In this document: positions 3,574 to 39,044 of the stretch, piece by piece | How positions within the stretch are numbered: position 1 is the first letter of the stretch | Layout: every line of letters starts with the position of its first letter | IMG/VR virus record: IMGVR_UViG_2718218304_000001 | Location: 50,160-114,159 of that record | DNA length: 64,000 nucleotides | Reading direction: 5' to 3' (one strand) | DNA from: a virus | Taxonomy: Duplodnaviria; Heunggongvirae; Uroviricota; Caudoviricetes | Notes under the pieces: generated by a model | What the model saw: only the letters and a program-made list of their open reading frames with translations | What the model was told of the DNA's origin: nothing | Databases searched by the model: none | Program-made: the position numbers and the translations under genes

Positions 3574-4131
3574 TTACACAATTTCAGAGGGTAATTTAAA
3601 AAATCCGTACTTATTACGTGCCTTAAAGAAGCATTGCATCATTAAGTTTGTGTCATATAAGGCACTATGTGCTTTGGCATGATCGTATATAAAGCCAAGA
3701 GAGAAGGCCAACTCTTCAAGGCGGGGACGTTTACCGTCTTCTGTGGCCCACAATCCCGATAACATAGTATCTATAACAGGAACTTCTGGCAGTCTTACTC
3801 CATACCCTGAAAACTCGTGTCGAATAAATGGTATATCAAATGCTTCGCCGTTATGAGCAACCCACACACTACATGCCCCCATATAAGCGCCAATTTCGCT
3901 GGCATGATTTGACAACAAAGGTTCAGCTGCGAGCTGTTCCAATGAAATGCCATGAACGGCTTGAGCTTTCGGATCTATGTTTCTGCGAGGGTTAAAACGC
4001 ATCTCCAGACTATCAATATGTCTCTGTGTCTCCAGTTCATAGCGGGTAATTGCGATTTCAATAATTTTATGACCAGCAAGGAAATCCAGTCCCGTAGACT
4101 CGATATCGATGCCTGCAACAATCGTTGTCAT
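3574..4131 (-). CDS. DEDDh 3'-5' exonuclease (DnaQ/epsilon-like)
   Basis: Exo I motif GIDIESTGL, Exo II VAHNGEAFDIPF, Exo III HSALYDT. Confidence 0.8.
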   Translation of the reverse strand: MTTIVAGIDIESTGLDFLAGHKIIEIAITRYELETQRHIDSLEMRFNPRRNIDPKAQAVHGISLEQLAAEPLLSNHASEIGAYMGACSVWVAHNGEAFDIPFIRHEFSGYGVRLPEVPVIDTMLSGLWATEDGKRPRLEELAFSLGFIYDHAKAHSALYDTNLMMQCFFKARNKYGFFKLPSEIV

Positions 4132-9624: not shown

Positions 9625-11940
9625 TCAGATTTTGCAGGCTCCGTCGCACTCATCTTCTGGCTCGACGGCTACAGCTTGCGTCAGTGGATTCTGCGGTTCG
9701 TCGTCATCACGCTTTCCTGCCCCATCTCTGGTGTTGTGGTAGTAAAGCGTTTTAACTCCCATCTTGTAGGCGAGAAGCAAATCTGACAGTAGCGTCATCA
9801 TTGGGACTTTATCGCCTTCAAAGCGAGAAGGGTCATAGTTGGTATTGGCTGAAATAGCCTGGTCAAAGAACTTCTGGATGATCGCCACCTTTGTCAGATA
9901 GCCGCGGTTGTCCGGCATATCCCACAGGTATTCATACTGTTCCTTCAGTTTTTCAAACTCAGGCACGACCATCTTAACGATGCCGTCCTTAGAAGATTTC
10001 ACCGACACCGGGCCACGAGGCGGTTCGATGCCGTTGGTGGAATTAGTGATCTGGCTGGAAGTCTCGCATGGCATTTGTGCCGTCAGTGTGGAGTTGCGAA
10101 GGCCGTATTTTGCAATACGTTCACGCAGTTCTTCCCACGGCATCTTTAACTCAAAGTTGGTTTCGCCACTTTCGTCTAATGAAGAACGGTAATGGTCGAT
10201 CGGCAACTGACCAATTGCGTACTTGGTCTGCTCAAACCAGTCACACTCACCTTTTGCTTCAGCAAGTCGGCAGCTGGCATCAAGAAGGTAATACTGGATA
10301 GCTTCGAACGTTTCATGCACCAGTTTATTGTCAGCGGTATCAGAATAACGAACGCCATTCTTTGCCAGGTAATAAGCAAAGTTGGTTACACCAATTCCCA
10401 AGCTACGACGAGCTTTGGCAGGCACTTCGGCTGCCTCCATCGGATAGTCTTGATAATCCAGTAACGAATCCAGTGCAGCAACGGCATAGAACGCCACCTC
10501 TTTAAGAGACTCCAGTGAACGGATGGCTCCGAGGTTAAAAGCGGATAAAGTGCATAGCGCGATCTCACCGTTCGGGTCGTCGGTAAATGCCAGTGGACGA
10601 GTGGGTAGAGTGATCTCCATGCACAGGTTTGACTGGCGAACAGGTGCAAGAGCAGGAATGAAAGCGCCATGCTCGTTAATATGATCGACGTTCGCAATAT
10701 AAATTCGGCCCGTGGACGCTCGTTCCTGCATCAGAGATGAGAACAGCTCAATGGCAGGTACTGACTTCTTGCGAATTGAATCATCGGCTTCGTATTTATG
10801 GTACAGCTTTTCAAACAGATCCTGGTCTGTGAAGAAGGCTTCGTACATATCAGGCACATCATGCGGGCTGAACAGAGTGATGTTCTCGCTTCTGACGAGT
10901 CGACGGTACATTAGACGGTTACTCATGACGCCGTAATCAAGATGGCGAACGCGGTTTTCATCAATACCACGGTTATTTTTCACCACCAGCAGACTTTCAA
11001 CTTCAAGATGCCAGATCGGGTAAAACGCTGTTGCTGCGCCACCACGAACACCACCTTGCGAGCAAGATTTAACAGCAGTCTGGAAATGCTTCAGGAATGG
11101 AATAACTCCGGTATGGGTGGCTTCACCATTGCGGATCTCACTGCCCAGCGCACGGATACGGCCAAAACCAATACCAATTCCAGCACGACGTGAAACGTAG
11201 TCGATAATTGCGGCTGAAGCTGCACTAATCCCTTTCAGACTATCGCCAGACTCAATCAGCACACAACTGGAGAACTGACGGGTTGGAGTACGGACGCCGG
11301 CCATGATTGGTGTGGGCAGAGACAGTTTGAACGTACTTGTAACGTCATAGAAACCTTTGACCATCTCCATACGTGTTTTGCCCGCGCAGTCGTCTTCCCA
11401 ATTCTGGAACAGACACATGCCCACCAGCATATAGATATGTTGCGGGCCTTCGTGAATCTCACCAGTAACACGGTTTTGAACGAGGTATTTGCTTTGCAAC
11501 TGCACCGTAGCTGCATAGCCAAAAAGATCGTCACGTTTCGGCTTAATGTAATTGCCGAGTTCTTCGATCTCTTCAAACGAATAATGTGTCAGCAAATCCT
11601 TGTCATAAACGCCCTTGTTAACGTTCTTGACAATGTGTTGGTAGAAGTTCGGATAGTCGTAACGACCGAAGGCATCTTTGCGGATTTTAAAAATGTTCAG
11701 GCGGGCAGCCACCTGTGAGTAATTTGGTGCTTCTGGTGAGATCAAATCAGCGGCAGATTTAACCAAAGCCTCATGCAACTGGCTGGTGGTAATCCCATCA
11801 AAAATGCTGGCCGCAGCTCCCATTGCTACAGCGGATGCGCTTACACCACGAATGCCTTCTACGCCATACATTACGACGCGGTTGTATTTTTCTTCGGATA
11901 ACGGCTCTGTTTGGCCGTTACGTTTTACGATGCTTATCAT
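9625..11940 (-). CDS. nrdA: ribonucleotide reductase class Ia alpha subunit
   Basis: 771 aa; N-terminal ATP-cone, FSSCVLIE active-site region, C-terminal CxxC tail; highly similar to E. coli NrdA as I recall it. Confidence 0.92.
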   Translation of the reverse strand: MISIVKRNGQTEPLSEEKYNRVVMYGVEGIRGVSASAVAMGAAASIFDGITTSQLHEALVKSAADLISPEAPNYSQVAARLNIFKIRKDAFGRYDYPNFYQHIVKNVNKGVYDKDLLTHYSFEEIEELGNYIKPKRDDLFGYAATVQLQSKYLVQNRVTGEIHEGPQHIYMLVGMCLFQNWEDDCAGKTRMEMVKGFYDVTSTFKLSLPTPIMAGVRTPTRQFSSCVLIESGDSLKGISAASAAIIDYVSRRAGIGIGFGRIRALGSEIRNGEATHTGVIPFLKHFQTAVKSCSQGGVRGGAATAFYPIWHLEVESLLVVKNNRGIDENRVRHLDYGVMSNRLMYRRLVRSENITLFSPHDVPDMYEAFFTDQDLFEKLYHKYEADDSIRKKSVPAIELFSSLMQERASTGRIYIANVDHINEHGAFIPALAPVRQSNLCMEITLPTRPLAFTDDPNGEIALCTLSAFNLGAIRSLESLKEVAFYAVAALDSLLDYQDYPMEAAEVPAKARRSLGIGVTNFAYYLAKNGVRYSDTADNKLVHETFEAIQYYLLDASCRLAEAKGECDWFEQTKYAIGQLPIDHYRSSLDESGETNFELKMPWEELRERIAKYGLRNSTLTAQMPCETSSQITNSTNGIEPPRGPVSVKSSKDGIVKMVVPEFEKLKEQYEYLWDMPDNRGYLTKVAIIQKFFDQAISANTNYDPSRFEGDKVPMMTLLSDLLLAYKMGVKTLYYHNTRDGAGKRDDDEPQNPLTQAVAVEPEDECDGACKI

Positions 11941-17456: not shown

Positions 17457-17654
17457 ATGTCATTTTTCTGTGATTGTTAGCCGAGGCAACGATAACCCAC
17501 CAGGTGCGCCGAAGGTAGTAAATGCCTGTTTTAATTATTCACATATCCACAGGATAGATCCTAATAAAGAGATCCATAGATAGATCCTTGTATAGATCAA
17601 ATAAGATCCCCGATCGCTGTAAGCCGCGCCACGACTGGTCTGAAGCCATGTTCA

Positions 17655-17760
17655 TGTATGCTGTCAGCGGTAATTGATAGTCTGTCAGCGGTTCACCGTA
17701 TGCTGCCAACTGTTTTTGGTATTCTGTCAGCGGCAAATCAAGTATGCTGTCAGCGGTTGA
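17655..17760. repeat. iteron array (5 copies, ~21-bp phasing) upstream of repA; candidate origin
   Basis: Repeats of (G)TATGCTGTCAGCGGT and variants at about 17657, 17678, 17699, 17722, 17743. Confidence 0.8.
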
Positions 17761-17777
17761 ATGACAAAGGTGTCCAC

Positions 17778-18872
17778 ATGTCCACAAAAAATAAAAAAGG
17801 TAAAAATAACAAAGAAGTAGAAGATAATCTCGACAACTTTGAAGAAGGTTCCCTTGAATTGTACACAGGGGAACTTGTCCCTAATAGCAACAATACAGTC
17901 CAACCAATTGCGTTGATGCGGCTGGGATTGTTCGTGCCCACGCTCAAGGGGACAAAATACAGCAAGCGTAACAAGCCAAATGAGATCGATGCTTCAAAGG
18001 AGCTTGTCCAGCTCGAAGTAGCCCGTTCTGAAGGCTATTCCGATATCAAGATAACCGGTCCTCGTCTCGACATGGATCATGATTTCAAAACGTGGGTGGG
18101 CGTTGTGCGTTCGCTGGCAGAATACGGCGAACCTAATGGTCGTGTCGAGTTAAGCATCACGAAATTTGCGAAGTTTTGTGGCTATCCATCGTCACAGATC
18201 CGCAAAACACTCCGCGACCGGCTTACAAACAGTCTTTTGAAGATCATGCGTACAACTCTGTCTTTCCAGAGAACGTATGAAGAAAAGAACGTCGACGGCT
18301 CTAACAAGATCTCGCTTCTGATGGTGCACCTCATCAATAGCGTGGACTACAACGAGCAGAAAGATACGGTGGTGTTCTATGCAGAACCGAAGCTGGCCGA
18401 ACTATATCGCTTTGACCATAAGGTTCTTTTGCAGTTAAAGGTTATCAATAAGCTACCACGCAAAGAAACAGCACAGGCTCTGTACACCTTCATCGAAAGT
18501 CTTCCAACCAAGCCTGCGCCGGTATCGCTTGCTCGATTGCGTGCGCGACTCAATTTGAGTAGCAGGAATGTCAGCTCGCAGAATCAGACTATACGTAACG
18601 GCTTAAAAGCTCTCCAAGATTTGGGCTATCTCGAATACAGCGAGATTAAGCGTGGGCGGTCGATCTATATCCAGATTCACAGCCGCAATCCAAAACTTAA
18701 AGTCGCACCGCCAAAACCTGAAGACATCGAACCCAAAAAACCAGATGAGAAAGCCGGGGAAATTGATGCTAAACAGAACATTATCAACAAGATAACTGAA
18801 CTTTCGCAGAATTTGACGCCTGAAAATATCAAGATGATTGAGATCCTTTCCAATAGTCTCAAACTGCTTTGA
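17778..18872 (+). CDS. repA: plasmid-type replication initiator (RepA-like, iteron-binding)
   Basis: Track ORF 17658..18872 overlaps the iterons; ATG at 17778 (MSTKNKKGK...) is the likely start; gene is bracketed by iteron arrays as in P1-type replicons. Confidence 0.65.
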   Translation: MSTKNKKGKNNKEVEDNLDNFEEGSLELYTGELVPNSNNTVQPIALMRLGLFVPTLKGTKYSKRNKPNEIDASKELVQLEVARSEGYSDIKITGPRLDMDHDFKTWVGVVRSLAEYGEPNGRVELSITKFAKFCGYPSSQIRKTLRDRLTNSLLKIMRTTLSFQRTYEEKNVDGSNKISLLMVHLINSVDYNEQKDTVVFYAEPKLAELYRFDHKVLLQLKVINKLPRKETAQALYTFIESLPTKPAPVSLARLRARLNLSSRNVSSQNQTIRNGLKALQDLGYLEYSEIKRGRSIYIQIHSRNPKLKVAPPKPEDIEPKKPDEKAGEIDAKQNIINKITELSQNLTPENIKMIEILSNSLKLL

Positions 18873-19405
18873 TATGCTGTCAGCGGTGAAATGTATGCTA
18901 TCAGCGGCTATTTTTCTGAAAAGTATGCTGTGAACGGTTAAAGATATGCTACCAGCGGTATAGTGAGATGAACGTATGCTGTGGGCGGTAAATCATCTAT
19001 CACCACTCAATGCTCTTTTATACCTCCCCAGTGGTTACTAACCTCGAAGAGTGCATTCCATATAGGTTTGCGCTCACTAACATTCTATTCCCATTGCGCT
19101 GATTGCTTGTAGTGAAAGGCATTTATTGCCTGCTGCTCCCTGATAGAACGTATGCTGTCAGCGGTGTTTTATTGAGGAATTTTTGTTTGGATATGCTATC
19201 AGCGGTAATTAATGGTATATGTCAGACCTTCGTATGCTGCCAGCGGTAATTTTGTTCTGGTTATACCCATACCGGTACACATTATTCATGCAATGTCTTA
19301 AGTATGCTGTCAGCGGTAAAAAATCGAGTAAAGTATGCTGTGAGCGGTGAGATAGACTCTCGATATGCTATCAGCGGTAGTTGATTGTGTATGCTGTTAG
19401 CGGTG
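18872..19405. repeat. second iteron array (about 12 copies, irregular spacing) downstream of repA; candidate copy-control locus
   Basis: Same TATGCT(G/A)TCAGCGGT core at about 18874, 18895, 18923, 18944, 18974, 19150, 19192, 19232, 19302, 19332, 19364, 19388. Confidence 0.8.
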
Positions 19406-19451
19406 ACGACTATGAAATATGACTGCGGCACGTTCCGCAGTCAGTTTGCAT

Positions 19452-19664
19452 TTAGTGTATTTTCTTTAACAGACCCCAAAGTGTTCCGGCTTTTGTAGTC
19501 AGTTTTCCTGTTTCTGGATCGTACATACGCCATTCACGCCGCTGGTGGACGATATACCCATCTTCACGTTCCAGACGCTCAAGAATGCCAGACTGCTTGA
19601 AACCCTTAGCACGCCAGTATCCGCTTGTTTTCTCGATTTCCAGACCTGCCAGTGTTAATGCCAT
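19452..19664 (-). CDS. hypothetical small protein
   Basis: 70-aa ORF translationally coupled to the upstream gene. Confidence 0.4.
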   Translation of the reverse strand: MALTLAGLEIEKTSGYWRAKGFKQSGILERLEREDGYIVHQRREWRMYDPETGKLTTKAGTLWGLLKKIH

Positions 19665-21050: not shown

Positions 21051-23390
21051 TTACTCTTCTACTGACTCGGTGGGGTTGTCTTTTGCTCTTCGGTCGTCGA
21101 TTGCCTGCAAAGCCGCAATGATTTCAGCCAGTGGCTTCTCCCGATACATCTCGACGATCTGCGATTTGGTGTATTTCTTGTCACCAATTTCAACTCGCCC
21201 GCTGGCGTTCTTTGGCAGGTATCCTTCTTCCAGCATGTACTCGACGAGCGATTCGATAACGTCGAGGCCACGAGTAGGATCGAAGTAGAATTTCCAGGTG
21301 CATTTGCCATACGGTGGTGCAACTTTGTTTTTGATGCATTCTGCGCCTACGTCCTGGCCGATCTTCTCTTTACCATCCTTCATCACCGATGCACCAAGAC
21401 GGATACGTACAGAAGCGTAGAACTTCGGTGAATCTCCACCTGGCGACGTAGTAGGGTCGCCAAACATTACACCGATTTTTGTGCGAACCTGATTCAAGAA
21501 GATGATGCAGGCGTTGTATTTGCGTGCCCACAAAGCCAGAGTAGGGAAGTTCGCACTCGTCGCACGAGCCAGTGCCGTATTGTCGTTCATGTTTAGCTGA
21601 TCTTTGTCTTTGGCAGTGCCTTCAGCCATCTTTTCGAACTTCTCGGCTTTGGAGTTCGGAACCATAGACGCAAGAGAGTCAGCCACGATACAGATAGGTG
21701 CTGATTCGGGGATAAGCTCTTCATCACGAACCAATTTAAGTATTGTGCCGATCAACTCTACAGAGTCTTCGAAGGTATCTGGCTGCTTGTATACCCACTG
21801 ACCGTCGTCTTCGTCGGCGTTCAGTCCGTTCGCTACCGCCAGACCAACGTCGAAACTGTTTTCGTGGTCAAGGAATACGGCCAGACCATCCTGTTTTTGT
21901 GCTGACACCATCGCAGCCGTCGCGAGGAATGTGTTGTGGCTGATAATCCCGTTAGACCAGAAAGAGTGTGTTTCCGGCATCGCTACGTCGAACGTTGGTG
22001 CTTCACCTTCCTCAATAGCCACGACTTCGTCGTAGAACAAGTTAGAGTCAATTACCGCTGCCAGTTGTGCAAACAGATGCTCGTTAAAACGATTCTTTCT
22101 GCCAATGAAGGAGACATAGATTTCTCGCAGTTTGTCTATTCCGACACGATCGCCGCGGCCAATAACGTGATCTACCAGAACGTAGTCTTTACGAGAGGTC
22201 TTGGTGAGTGACTCGTAGAGTGATTTCACTAAGCCGCTGATGTGCGGAACGTAGCCTAAATAAGTGCGGTCAAAACTAATGTCCCGTTTGGTTGCCACTG
22301 CTAAACGAGCCGGAGACTCGAACCCAATCGTTGACAGGAAAAGGTCGTAGTTAGAGCCACTGAATGACAGCCGGTAATATATGTTTTTATAACCTGCGAC
22401 GTGTTTTTCAGAGATAGTTGACGTAATCCCCAGATTCAGGAGCATGAGGCGAATTTGCTGTAGCAGCAGCCCACTCGCGCTCACAACCTCAATGCAGCGA
22501 CCATCATTGACGTGGCATTCCAGCTCAAAGTAGCCGCGAAGGAATGCAATTTGAGCCTCGCTATTGGCGCGACGCACACTCAACGGAACCTGCTTGCCAG
22601 CAGCTTTCTCATACTCCAGACCATATTCTTTAAAAAGCAGCGAACGCACCTCTTTGCTAAACAGCACATGGTCTTCCGAGCCGTTATGTTTTCTCGTAAC
22701 TGGCATCTTGTCTGATACCAGCGAAATGAGGCGGTAGTACTCATCCTTGATGAAAGGATCTGTGTTAGAAAAATTCACTGAATTTTCAGAGGCCACGTAT
22801 CCGTCAGCAATTAAATAGCCCATCAGTTTTGCGATATTGGCATCCAGGTGCTGATCGCCGAATTGATGTGTGCCAACCATTGAAGGAATCGTGTCGCCTA
22901 CACTGATTTTTTCAGCATGTCGCCAGACGACATTACCTAAGTCGTCAACCACACGGATTGGGTGACGGAACGTAGCCTCGATATAACCGCCTGATGCCAG
23001 CTTAATACGCTTGAATTTGCGACGGTTGTTCCATGTCAGGTGTGAGGTCTTCTCTATCACGCCATTTTCATTGATGAGTCCAACGTTATGCTCTACATCG
23101 CGAGTAGTGCATGTCGCTTTGTACCCTTCAATCTCAAACAACTCTTTCACTGTTACCATTCCACGCTCCGTCAGCAGCATGGTGTCTGCGGTAACACATT
23201 TCCCCGCGCTTGGTGGCCCGAATACTTCTACGATACGACCACATGGGAAACCGCCATCGTAACGACCGGAAATAGCTTTGTTTAACGGAGGAAAGCCTGT
23301 GTCAATCCAATGAGTTACTTTCTGAATTTCGTCGTTGCTACCGATTTTCTTTTTCAGAGCAAGTGCCAGTGCGGATTTTCCTTTTGCCAT
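21051..23390 (-). CDS. UvsX/RecA-like recombinase interrupted by an intein
   Basis: Exteins (about 64 + 293 aa) give a RecA-fold recombinase: P-loop GPPSAGK|T, AVFLDHENS, CIVADSLA. Inserted 422-aa segment begins with Cys and ends His-Asn followed by Thr. Confidence 0.75.
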   Translation of the reverse strand: MAKGKSALALALKKKIGSNDEIQKVTHWIDTGFPPLNKAISGRYDGGFPCGRIVEVFGPPSAGKCVTADTMLLTERGMVTVKELFEIEGYKATCTTRDVEHNVGLINENGVIEKTSHLTWNNRRKFKRIKLASGGYIEATFRHPIRVVDDLGNVVWRHAEKISVGDTIPSMVGTHQFGDQHLDANIAKLMGYLIADGYVASENSVNFSNTDPFIKDEYYRLISLVSDKMPVTRKHNGSEDHVLFSKEVRSLLFKEYGLEYEKAAGKQVPLSVRRANSEAQIAFLRGYFELECHVNDGRCIEVVSASGLLLQQIRLMLLNLGITSTISEKHVAGYKNIYYRLSFSGSNYDLFLSTIGFESPARLAVATKRDISFDRTYLGYVPHISGLVKSLYESLTKTSRKDYVLVDHVIGRGDRVGIDKLREIYVSFIGRKNRFNEHLFAQLAAVIDSNLFYDEVVAIEEGEAPTFDVAMPETHSFWSNGIISHNTFLATAAMVSAQKQDGLAVFLDHENSFDVGLAVANGLNADEDDGQWVYKQPDTFEDSVELIGTILKLVRDEELIPESAPICIVADSLASMVPNSKAEKFEKMAEGTAKDKDQLNMNDNTALARATSANFPTLALWARKYNACIIFLNQVRTKIGVMFGDPTTSPGGDSPKFYASVRIRLGASVMKDGKEKIGQDVGAECIKNKVAPPYGKCTWKFYFDPTRGLDVIESLVEYMLEEGYLPKNASGRVEIGDKKYTKSQIVEMYREKPLAEIIAALQAIDDRRAKDNPTESVEE
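21933..23198 (-). other. intein with LAGLIDADG homing-endonuclease domain inside the recombinase P-loop
   Basis: Cys1 after GPPSAGK; two LAGLIDADG-like motifs (LMGYLIADGYV, FLRGYFELECHV); C-terminal ...SHN then Thr(+1). Confidence 0.65.
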
Positions 23391-27344: not shown

Positions 27345-27673
27345 TGATGCCCGCCAATTGGCGGGCATCTGTTCTCTGTAAAGGTGTCTGGCATCGTCTG
27401 GTTCGTTAACGTTTACTAAACCAATGGTGACAAAAATTAGTTATCTTTGAAAAATAAAGGTTGCATGAAAAGAAGGGGTATGCGTTAATAGCATCGTTGG
27501 TTTGCAAGACAGACCTTATGTAAGCAGTTTTAGTAAAGCAGTCTCAGTTCAGTGTTATCTTCTGATTTCCCTTCTTCGTGAGTCTCCTCCTTAAGTGCCT
27601 AAGTAAGTCCCAATCTATACAGATCAAATTCTCGCCGCACTATGTGGCTCACAAAATTAAGAAGGTAATATCT

Positions 27674-27889
27674 ATGTCTAATAAAATGACTGGTTTAGTA
27701 AAATGGTTTAACTCTGATAAAGGCTTTGGCTTTATTTCTCCTGCTGATGGCAGTAAAGATGTTTTTGTACATTTTTCGGCAATTCAGAGTAATAATTTCC
27801 GCACTTTGGAAGAAGGCCAGCAGGTCGAATTCTCTATCGAGAATGGGGCTAAAGGCCCAGCAGCAGCAAATGTCGTTGCTCTAAGCTGA
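27674..27889 (+). CDS. cold-shock protein (CspA family)
   Basis: [23 protein letters not shown]...[12 protein letters not shown]1/RNP2 motifs of the CspA family; ~71 aa; long 5' leader upstream. Confidence 0.85.
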
Positions 27890-28168
27890 TTCAACGCTGA
27901 TGATCCTCATTTCTACAATAACGAAGACGGTGTAAGCCTGAGTGGATAGATTTGTAGGATTGTACAAGTTGAATAAATTAGCATGGTAAGGCCATGCTAA
28001 TTAAATCGACACAACGGCCAGTTTATTCCATAAAAGTGAATTGCCCATTGTGGCGAAATGCGGGGTTGCCGCATGAATAGTCAAAGGCAGAAGCTAACTG
28101 CCGGCATGGCAAAACAAAGTGCGTAAGAGGAGTGACTTCCTCAACAAGCGCCATAATTCTTTATAAAC

Positions 28169-38797: not shown

Positions 38798-38874
38798 TGG
38801 TGCCGGTTAACGGGATCGAACCGCTGACATCCTGCTTACAAGGCAGACGCTCTACCAACTGAGCTAAACCGGCA
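38798..38874 (-). tRNA. tRNA-Thr (anticodon TGT)
   Basis: Hand-folded: acceptor GCCGGTT/AACCGGC, D-arm GCTC-AGTTGGTA-GAGC, anticodon loop CTTGTAA, T-loop TTCGATC, CCA. Confidence 0.8.
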
Positions 38875-38877
38875 ATT

Positions 38878-38964
38878 TGGTGGGGAGTGATGGAGTCGAA
38901 CCACCCGAGTCGCAATGACAGTAGATTTACAGTCTACCCCGCTGCCCCTACGGACTAACTCCCC
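38878..38964 (-). tRNA. tRNA-Tyr (anticodon GTA), long variable arm
   Basis: Hand-folded: acceptor GGGGAGT/ACTCCCC, anticodon arm GTAGA-CTGTAAA-TCTAC, T-loop TTCGACT, CCA; D-arm pairing less clear. Confidence 0.7.
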
Positions 38965-38969
38965 TAAAT

Positions 38970-39044
38970 TGGCGATGGTGGGTGGATTCGAACCACCGAC
39001 CAGTTGGTTAACAGCCAACTGCTCTACCGCTGAGCTACACCATC
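38970..39044 (-). tRNA. tRNA-Asn (anticodon GTT)
   Basis: Hand-folded: acceptor GATGGTG/CACCATC, D-arm GCTC-AGCGGTA-GAGC, anticodon arm GTTGG-CTGTTAA-CCAAC, T-arm GGTGG-TTCGAAT-CCACC, CCA. Confidence 0.85.

Follow-up and report, generated by a model that had tools for sequence, protein, structure and literature searches.

Anatomy of a probable plasmid replicon of the P1/RepFIB iteron type in a pECOH89-type phage-plasmid of the SSU5 family

We analyzed a 64-kb stretch of tailed-phage DNA (Caudoviricetes; positions 50,160 to 114,159 of IMG/VR virus record IMGVR_UViG_2718218304_000001), hereafter the window, in which a gene predicted to encode a replication initiator, repA, sits between two arrays of short direct repeats (iterons). 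Together with a candidate origin module on the left and a hairpin on the right, these repeats and repA form a candidate iteron replicon whose features are, from left to right and with the basis of each assignment in parentheses:

17535–17551, + strand: two tandem candidate DnaA boxes (TTATTCACA and ATATCCACA) at the left edge of the origin (position and homology to P1 oriR).
17553–17615, + strand: cluster of GATC (Dam-site) heptamers with six GATC sites (within 17557–17615), four of them as AGATCC (density; alignment to five P1 Dam sites).
17616–17655, + strand: GC-rich spacer GCCGCGCCACGACTGG that separates the GATC cluster from the iterons (conserved in relatives).
17656–17761, + strand: five origin iterons, incC-like, with core R-TATGCTGTCAGCGGT and spacing 21/21/21/23 (pattern search; number and spacing as in P1 incC).
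17767–17786, + strand: Shine-Dalgarno sequence AAGGTG and two overlapping DnaA-box-like 9-mers (GTGTCCACA and ATGTCCACA) across the repA start codon (read from the sequence).
17778–18872, + strand: repA, predicted to encode an iteron-binding replication initiator of 364 residues, stop codon included (Pfam, PHROG, and homology to P1 RepA).
18872–18993, + strand: proximal control iterons, five copies with spacing 21/30/21/30, from the repA stop codon (position that of the first P1 incA iteron).
19027–19084, + strand: bipartite non-iteron element, consisting of CCCAGTGGTTACTAACCTC (at 19027), about 20 nt, and GTTTGCGCTCACTAACATT (at 19066) (conservation in relatives).
19150–19408, + strand: distal control iterons, seven copies with spacing 41/41/70/31/30/26 (pattern search; copy number varies in relatives).
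19420–19443, no strand assigned: 9-bp GC-rich hairpin (TGACTGCGG/CCGCAGTCA), terminator-like on both strands, at the right border of the cassette (repeat and hairpin analysis).

A search of the whole window with the pattern TATGCTGTCAGCGGT, allowing at most three mismatches and using 100 shuffles as background, returned 20 matches against 1.68 ± 1.27 expected, a number that none of the 100 shuffles reached. Seventeen of the 20 cluster within 17657–19404, every one on the + strand, and the other three (at 10324, 23178, and 38820) have three mismatches apiece, which is chance level. The gene repA lies between the 17 same-strand copies of R-TATGCTGTCAGCGGT, with five of them upstream and 12 downstream, and a column-by-column count places the informative core at 16 bp (R plus 15), with an A/T-rich tail after it. 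The upstream copies begin at 17657, 17678, 17699, 17720, and 17743, with spacings of 21, 21, 21, and 23 bp. The first downstream copy begins at 18873, the base directly 3' of the TGA stop codon of repA, and the others at 18894, 18924, 18945, 18975, 19151, 19192, 19233, 19303, 19334, 19364, and 19390, with spacings of 21, 30, 21, 30, 176, 41, 41, 70, 31, 30, and 26 bp. The downstream cores have zero to two mismatches to the consensus, and the sequence between the cores is diverged. The original prediction for this locus, made from the sequence alone, had counted five upstream copies at a phasing of about 21 bp and about 12 irregularly spaced downstream copies, and both counts prove exact (the downstream spacing ranges from 21 to 176 bp). 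Its span of 17640–19410 takes in the iterons and repA, but the unit starts about 105 bp further left, where the DnaA boxes (17535) and the GATC cluster (17553–17615) lie, and the 12 downstream copies that it treated as a single array form two blocks (5 + 7) split by a 176-bp non-iteron segment. The downstream iterons are only modestly in helical phase (R = 0.68 at 10.3 bp, a value also attained in 132 of 5000 random placements); since this phasing is marginal and depends on the assumed period, we did not use it as evidence.

The reading frame between the two arrays is intact, and its best start, ATG 17778, yields a protein of 364 residues. The start given by PGAP/RefSeq is ATG 17658, which lies inside iteron 1 and yields 404 residues, the extra 40 of which (MLSAV..., repeated) are translated iterons. 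We regard ATG 17778 as the likely true start because a Shine-Dalgarno sequence, AAGGTG, stands 5 nt upstream, because the same start is annotated in phage PhiR41_1, and because the RepA homologs of P1, SSU5, and RepFIB begin at the equivalent position. The start codon of the window repA is thus an ordinary ATG, unlike the CTG of the FIB rep gene (PMC11983097). The long start of the PGAP type is seen in proteins P0001, P0002, P0009, and P0025, and one such protein cluster comprises 667 member sequences. The two 9-mers across the start codon, GTGTCCACA and ATGTCCACA, have two mismatches each to the DnaA box; relatives have GTATCCACA at the same place, and P1 has the DnaA-box-like TATCCACA between its last iteron and repA. 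The assignment of the window 9-mers as DnaA boxes is weak.

RepA passes the Pfam Rep3_N model (WH1, the first winged-helix domain; PF01051) at residues 118–239 with 37.5 bits against a cutoff of 22.4 (E-value 3.9e-9), and it matches PHROG 775 with an E-value of 5e-133. PHROG 775 and several RefSeq phage records name this family "replication helicase"; no helicase domain was detected in RepA, and the family is one of winged-helix iteron-binding initiators, contrary to that label. A tblastn search of phage genomes aligns residues 32–309 with P1/P7 RepA at 43.5% identity (E-value 2e-64), and by tblastn the protein is 47.9% identical to SSU5/Cyrano RepA and 85–87% identical to RepA of Klebsiella phage-plasmids of the pKPHS1 type. 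Blocks invariant in the RepA alignment include TVQPxALMRLGxFVP and RLDMDxDFKxW. A large protein database holds 477 RepA homologs, which, where named, are mostly RepB-family/RepFIB initiators; PF01051 is present in all 120 of the homologs listed, and identity to many RepFIB/RepB initiators is about 50%. An AlphaFold2 model built from 33 homologs (mean pLDDT, the predicted local distance difference test score, of 71; about 80–92 in the core) predicts a tandem winged-helix fold (WH1–WH2) of the iteron-initiator type. Its best Foldseek matches in the PDB are domains 2–3 of RctB (E-value 4e-8), RepE of mini-F (7e-5), the WH1 domain of MSBI1.176, and R6K pi (1.5e-2), with moderate TM-scores of 0.26–0.40 on the query that indicate a match at the fold level only.

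Compared with the Klebsiella ortholog, core residues 32–309 of RepA show a proportion of nonsynonymous differences (pN) of 0.05 and of synonymous differences (pS) of 0.82, at which synonymous sites are saturated, and we therefore conclude that RepA is under strong purifying selection. The C-terminal tail of about 55 residues, found in RepFIB proteins and absent from P1 RepA, is also constrained (omega of about 0.08), and the first 31 residues are unconstrained (omega of about 0.7). Truncation or inactivity of RepA in related genomes had been named at the outset as evidence that would speak against a replicon; what we find in relatives is a full-length RepA under this strong selection.

The candidate DnaA boxes to the left of the iterons, at 17535 and 17543, have one mismatch each to TTATCCACA and align with the two annotated boxes of P1 oriR; TTATTCACA/ATATCCACA is the only adjacent same-strand pair of DnaA boxes in the window. 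The GATC cluster beside them is the densest of the window, with six sites in 80 bp where the background is 0.4 per 100 bp, and includes four same-strand copies of AGATCC inside 54 bp; from its likeness to P1, we presume that it serves as a methylation-dependent opening region. The GC spacer that follows is conserved in P1 and in the relatives from Klebsiella and Salmonella; in IncFIB and SSU5 the conservation is partial. In a local BLAST comparison, positions 17524–17638 are 77% identical over 118 nt to the annotated P1 oriR (E-value 3e-16), a match that a multiple alignment also recovers, and the P1 record lists at the matching positions a DnaA binding site and Dam methylation sites 1–5, then five iterons and repA. 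This left origin module also aligns in the Klebsiella, Salmonella, SSU5, and IncFIB replicons and is 83% identical in one IncFIB plasmid. The alignments of RepA and of oriR therefore establish the likeness to P1 as homology at both the protein and the DNA level. Homology to the SSU5 backbone, which is 78–84% in the flanking genes, ends at 17616, where the GATC cluster ends, and resumes at 19454, past the hairpin; between these positions only patches of repA align to SSU5, and the iterons do not. We conclude from these breaks that a module for host factors is shared with SSU5, and that a specificity cassette composed of iterons, repA, and iterons differs.

P1 (oriR–repA–incA, IncY) likewise carries five origin iterons directly upstream of repA, with spacings of 21, 21, 21, and 22, and shares with the window origin the tandem DnaA boxes, GATC heptamers, and GC spacer distal to repA. 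A control array at the end of repA is common to both, with P1 copy 9 starting at the last base of repA, and in both cases the host element is a plasmid prophage. The resemblance to P1-type replicons that the original prediction drew is thus borne out by the homology of RepA (43.5%) and of the oriR DNA (77%) as well as by the layout. The P1 iteron is GATGTGTGCTGGAGGGAAA, in contrast to TATGCTGTCAGCGGT in the window, so that the replicon is not IncY and a different incompatibility specificity is expected, and the window RepA differs from that of P1 in its longer N-terminal leader and its C-terminal tail of about 55 residues.

RepFIB (F, P307, and pO157) stands no further from the window replicon than P1 does, whether judged by RepA identity (about 50% versus 43.5%) or by iteron layout, and its initiator shares the C-terminal tail of the window RepA. 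The FIB rep gene has five origin iterons on its upstream side (B, C, D, D', and D'') and a control block (E–K) downstream, and the downstream block alone displaces the plasmid, consistent with its presumed handcuffing (PMC11983097). Unlike RepFIB, the window has its 12 downstream copies in two blocks, and its host is a phage-plasmid rather than a conjugative plasmid. The Klebsiella replicons of the pKPHS1 type ("IncpKPHS1", e.g., pJN2-26) have the same iteron consensus, the same upstream spacing (21/21/21/23), and the same flanking backbone genes, and differ in having eight or nine downstream iterons, an 87-bp gap, and block A of the bipartite element after the array; the two types probably belong to one incompatibility group. 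The sole published account of the Klebsiella group gives four iterons downstream of repA and a RepA without a known domain (PMC6735626).

SSU5/pHCM2/pLF82 (phage Cyrano) replicons occupy the same backbone slot between the same flanking genes and have the same DnaA-box/GATC module and the same bipartite element in the gap of the downstream array. Their iteron, AACCACTGTAGAGAGTA, is unrelated and has no copy in the window replicon; the origin module is duplicated in SSU5, and its downstream iterons occur in both orientations, as in P1 incA. The copies of DnaA boxes and GATC sites plus iterons upstream of SSU5 repA lie at 1780–1999 and 2155–2400 of locus L004, and the second has lost most of its GATC sites. 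Because the iterons differ, we predict that replicons of the pECOH89/Klebsiella type and of the SSU5/pLF82 type are compatible. More distantly, mini-F (ori2/RepE/incC), R6K pi, and RctB of V. cholerae have in common with the window replicon the predicted tandem winged-helix fold and the use of origin iterons plus a separate control array, and differ in protein subfamily and iterons, with no sequence similarity to RepA detectable by phmmer against PDB sequences.

The iterons themselves bear the mark of selection. Upstream of repA, the iteron cores share 91% identity with those of Klebsiella and the spacers 57%, though synonymous sites of repA are saturated at this distance. Iterons also track the divergence of RepA: a RepA of 61% identity is accompanied by TATTCTGTAGGCGGT, one of 54% by an unrelated repeat, and that of SSU5 (48%) by AACCACTGTAGAGAGTA. 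Such co-variation is the pattern that should be expected of a protein and its binding sites.

The replicon carries the label IncFIB(H89-PhagePlasmid) in PlasmidFinder, which is in routine literature use (25 papers) and which we take to refer to pECOH89, and the label rep_cluster_488 in MOB-suite. A 2.1-kb region of the locus is 100% identical to the E. coli plasmid pEND_Eco 14033-3 (NZ_CP126951.1, 108.5 kb), in which rep_cluster_488 is the only typed replicon. The same region is 98–99% identical to about 120 other plasmids of 100–115 kb, 98.9% identical to the infectious Escherichia phage PhiR41_1, and 98.7% identical to p09EL50 (NC_018651.1), whose RepA has been reported to be identical to that of pECOH89 (PMC3999498). 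The matching elements are phage-plasmids of the SSU5/pHCM2 family (PMC7969092, PMC8085198), and the matching plasmid record encodes head, tail, portal, and terminase genes in addition to a large DNA-metabolism block. Of 5426 complete E. coli genomes, 118 carry the replicon; its 183 places are all plasmid and in no case chromosomal, and the four replicon-bearing records checked for topology are all circular. That the phage genome is maintained as a plasmid, as the original prediction held, is supported by the plasmid location of all 183 places and by a ParA-like gene pair and a TacA/TacT module elsewhere in the window (described below). Taking these lines of evidence together, we are confident that positions 17535–19443 constitute the replicon used in the plasmid mode by a pECOH89-type siphovirus phage-plasmid of the SSU5 family, and that this replicon is an iteron replicon of the P1/RepFIB type.

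The P1 origin contains a GATC region that is Dam-dependent, and by analogy with this system and with RepFIB we posit the following mechanism. RepA monomers would bind the five in-phase origin iterons (17656–17761) and, together with host DnaA at the flanking boxes, would open the adjacent GATC-rich segment, which would probably be active only when fully Dam-methylated and sequestered when hemimethylated, as in P1; the host replisome would then be loaded and the origin would fire. With the origin iterons presumably overlapping the repA promoter region, RepA may repress its own synthesis. The 12 downstream iterons, like P1 incA and RepFIB E–K, would titrate RepA and handcuff the origin iterons in cis and between sisters, and this combination of titration and handcuffing would hold the copy number low and set incompatibility. 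The ParA-like pair and the TacAT module would complete stable inheritance. Low copy number and autonomous replication of the element are, in the same way, what we infer from the characterized relatives. Copy-number mutants linked to RepA in a phage-plasmid are the subject of a 2026 preprint, which was set aside; the replicon described there is unrelated and of the CopA/IncFII type.

Several observations weigh against this interpretation. The DnaA boxes are each mismatched, and the window shows no excess of single boxes (17 versus 15 expected). Scanning the iteron array (17656–17778) for the sigma-70 consensus revealed no match of 9/12 or better; the positional equivalent of P1 PrepA is TTGGTA-N18-AAGTAT, which scores 7/12 where the annotated promoter of P1 scores 8/12, and it is weak evidence either way. 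All 12 control iterons of the window are direct and are interrupted by a conserved non-iteron element, whereas P1 has nine (three direct and six inverted), and the window control array is not adjoined by parAB-parS, unlike that of P1, the only ParA-like gene being that at 55584–56252. A phmmer search of RepA against PDB chain sequences gave no match at an E-value of at most 1, and it was for this reason that we examined the fold through a predicted model; NCBIfam gave no match for RepA or for the neighboring genes. The literature searched held no experiment on a replicon of the pECOH89 type. Finally, the element brings a DnaB-like helicase, primase, and DnaE of its own, which RepA may recruit in place of the host replisome.

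The last point bears on an alternative in which the RepA/iteron unit is mainly, or also, a lytic (vegetative) origin that recruits the element's own helicase, primase, and polymerase. The element encodes, besides these proteins, a ligase, RNase H, and RecA; the replicon is located among DNA-metabolism genes, and no separate lytic origin was identified in our analysis. We nevertheless consider this alternative unlikely. All characterized homologs, P1 RepA and RepFIB, are copy-controlled plasmid initiators, and a negative-control array of 12 iterons fits strict copy limitation and not runaway replication. The same layout is also retained in E. albertii plasmids of 62–64 kb. One of them, p2014C-4015-1, lacks annotated head and tail genes in the 50 kb examined and keeps an identical 5 + 12 replicon, its only typed replicon, along with the ParA-like genes, TacAT, and DNA-replication genes; it appears to be a defective phage-plasmid that persists as a plain plasmid. 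Six similar records of 62–64 kb accompany it, and this group is ridden with insertion sequences. In a 115-kb contig of Rosenbergiella collisarenosi (locus L012), a RepA of 78% identity and window-like iterons adjoin a divergent type Ia parA-parB pair, and gene calling over the 6.2 kb examined gave no phage genes. The Rosenbergiella arrangement indicates that the same replicon type also occurs with adjacent partition genes. A lytic role is possible as an addition to the plasmid role.

According to a second alternative, the downstream repeats play no regulatory part and represent either origin iterons that were duplicated and are now decaying or a second, weak origin. It draws on the irregular spacing of these repeats and on the variation of their number among relatives (12, 9, 9, and 8). 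Counting iterons in relatives, a check proposed with the original prediction, gave layouts of 5 + 12, 5 + 9, and 5 + 8:

E. albertii 63.8-kb plasmid p2014C-4015-1 (locus L009): 5 + 12, spacing identical to that of the window; no head or tail gene annotated over the 50 kb inspected.
Salmonella relative with a 93% identical RepA: 5 + 12, and a gap of 174 bp in the corresponding position.
Phage PhiR41_1: 5 + 9, with an 87-bp iteron-to-iteron deletion.
Klebsiella relatives: 5 + 8 and 5 + 9, with an 87-bp gap.

The five upstream positions are kept in the Klebsiella, E. albertii, and Salmonella relatives, and the proximal control block is also present in all three; the distal block has four or five iterons in the Klebsiella relatives and seven, with different spacing, in Salmonella. 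The infectious phage PhiR41_1 has three fewer copies than the window. Its 87-bp deletion has both ends inside iterons and removes three control iterons (positions 4061–4090 of locus L001 against 19303–19404 of the window), and this 5 + 9 layout is a natural variant in an infectious phage that would be useful for tests of copy number. Nearly all of the E. coli matches listed equal the query in length, from which we conclude that 5 + 12 is the usual state, and among the matches listed the 12-copy layout is length-invariant across about 40 records of 98–100% identity. This constancy speaks against the second alternative, as do the close agreement of the downstream cores with the consensus amid diverged intervening sequence, the beginning of the array at the stop codon, as in P1 incA and RepFIB, and the lack of a DnaA-box/GATC module beside the downstream array. 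We regard this alternative as very improbable.

The notion that the repeats flanking repA are the attL and attR sites of an integrating element, which takes its support from the pJN2-26 GenBank record, in which two 20-bp repeats, one to either side of rep, are labeled attR and attL, can be dismissed almost outright: the labeled 20-mers are two of the 13 iterons in that record, no chromosomal place was found in the 5426 complete E. coli genomes, and the replicon-bearing records are plasmids of 100–115 kb, circular in the four checked. Because both 20-mers are iterons, we consider the attL/attR annotation of pJN2-26 (MZ779062.1; positions 2378–2397 and 3648–3667 of locus L005) to be erroneous.

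The 176-bp gap that splits the control array contains the bipartite element listed above, with the motif CCCAGTG-n3-ACTAACCT, about 20 nt, and then TAGGTT-G-n4-ACTAACA-TT. In the Salmonella relative its two blocks are conserved at 19/19 and 18/19 positions and the remainder of the gap is diverged; in Klebsiella block A is conserved at 17/19 positions but is located after the last iteron; and in SSU5 both blocks are present in inverted orientation, although the iterons there differ from those of the window. Counterparts of the element lie at 3873–3930 of locus L011, at 3930–3948 of L005, and at 3643–3700 of L004 (SSU5, − strand). The element turned up in SSU5-family phage-plasmids alone (135 plasmid records), with pECOH89 (NC_023916.1) matching at 97.5%, and is absent from the P1 locus. 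Three identities for it were tried and rejected. A structured single-strand signal was ruled out by folds that are weak and not conserved (z-scores of −2.1 to +0.4). Relic iterons of the SSU5 type are absent from the gap at up to four mismatches. A Ter site for Tus agrees at 9/11 positions (GTGGTTACTAA versus GTTGTAACTAA), with both mismatches in the core and an orientation that is not conserved. The element may be a protein-binding site, or it may be a mere conserved remnant of the backbone around which the iterons were added. We offer only as speculation, and think it rather doubtful, that it is a functional cis-acting site conserved across SSU5-family replicons with different iterons, orientations, and positions. 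If this were true, the element could bind a phage or host protein that modulates handcuffing and thereby couples plasmid copy control to the lysis-lysogeny state, and it would add a level of regulation that has not been described for P1 or RepFIB replicons.

Small converging genes lie downstream of the control array. Searches with the small genes flanking the replicon gave nothing in Pfam and only families of unknown function in PHROGs, and Rfam at gathering scores gave nothing in 17.5–19.5 kb. Elsewhere in the window, we identified the following features:

1829–2422, − strand: phage-type Dam-family N6-adenine methyltransferase, predicted (Pfam PF05869, E-value 3e-38).
21051–23390, − strand: RecA homolog split by an intein that bears a LAGLIDADG homing-endonuclease domain (Pfam RecA, Intein_splicing, and LAGLIDADG_3).
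27496–27914, + strand, and 38801–39044, − strand: cspA thermoregulator 5' untranslated region, full length (Rfam, 186 bits), and three tRNA genes (Rfam).
55228–56252, − strand: candidate partition genes, a ParA-like Walker ATPase (222 aa, 55584–56252 with stop) and a 117-aa partner (55228–55578) (Pfam).
56571–57366, + strand: TacA-like antitoxin and GNAT toxin-like acetyltransferase, a TacA/TacT addiction module (Pfam TacA1, E-value 6e-26; GNAT families, E-value 5e-8).

The element's own Dam-family gene is of note given that the origin carries a GATC cluster like that of the Dam-dependent P1 oriR. The candidate partition genes are about 36 kb from the replicon and adjoin the TacA/GNAT pair; the ParA-like ATPase matches the Pfam families MipZ, AAA_31, CbiA, and ParA with E-values of 7e-14 to 5e-7, and its 117-aa partner has no Pfam match. 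RefSeq names the whole intein-bearing RecA "LAGLIDADG family homing endonuclease", and the cold-shock gene cspG is annotated near the matching position of the thermoregulator in the matching plasmid record.

This replicon type is already cataloged for typing, and its RepA is annotated in hundreds of records; what is new as a description is the detailed anatomy. The public records examined contain no origin or iteron annotation, and the exact coordinates of the origin, iterons, and repA start given here are ones that public records lack or mislabel. The finding leaves the understanding of iteron replicons unchanged and adds another member to the P1/RepFIB family. The block of 12 downstream iterons could serve as an incompatibility-based curing cassette, as has been shown for FIB replicons, in a group of elements of which pECOH89 and similar members carry blaCTX-M-15. 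For the biology of the family, the replicon would explain how a widespread SSU5-family phage-plasmid, present in about 2% of complete E. coli genomes, persists as a plasmid.

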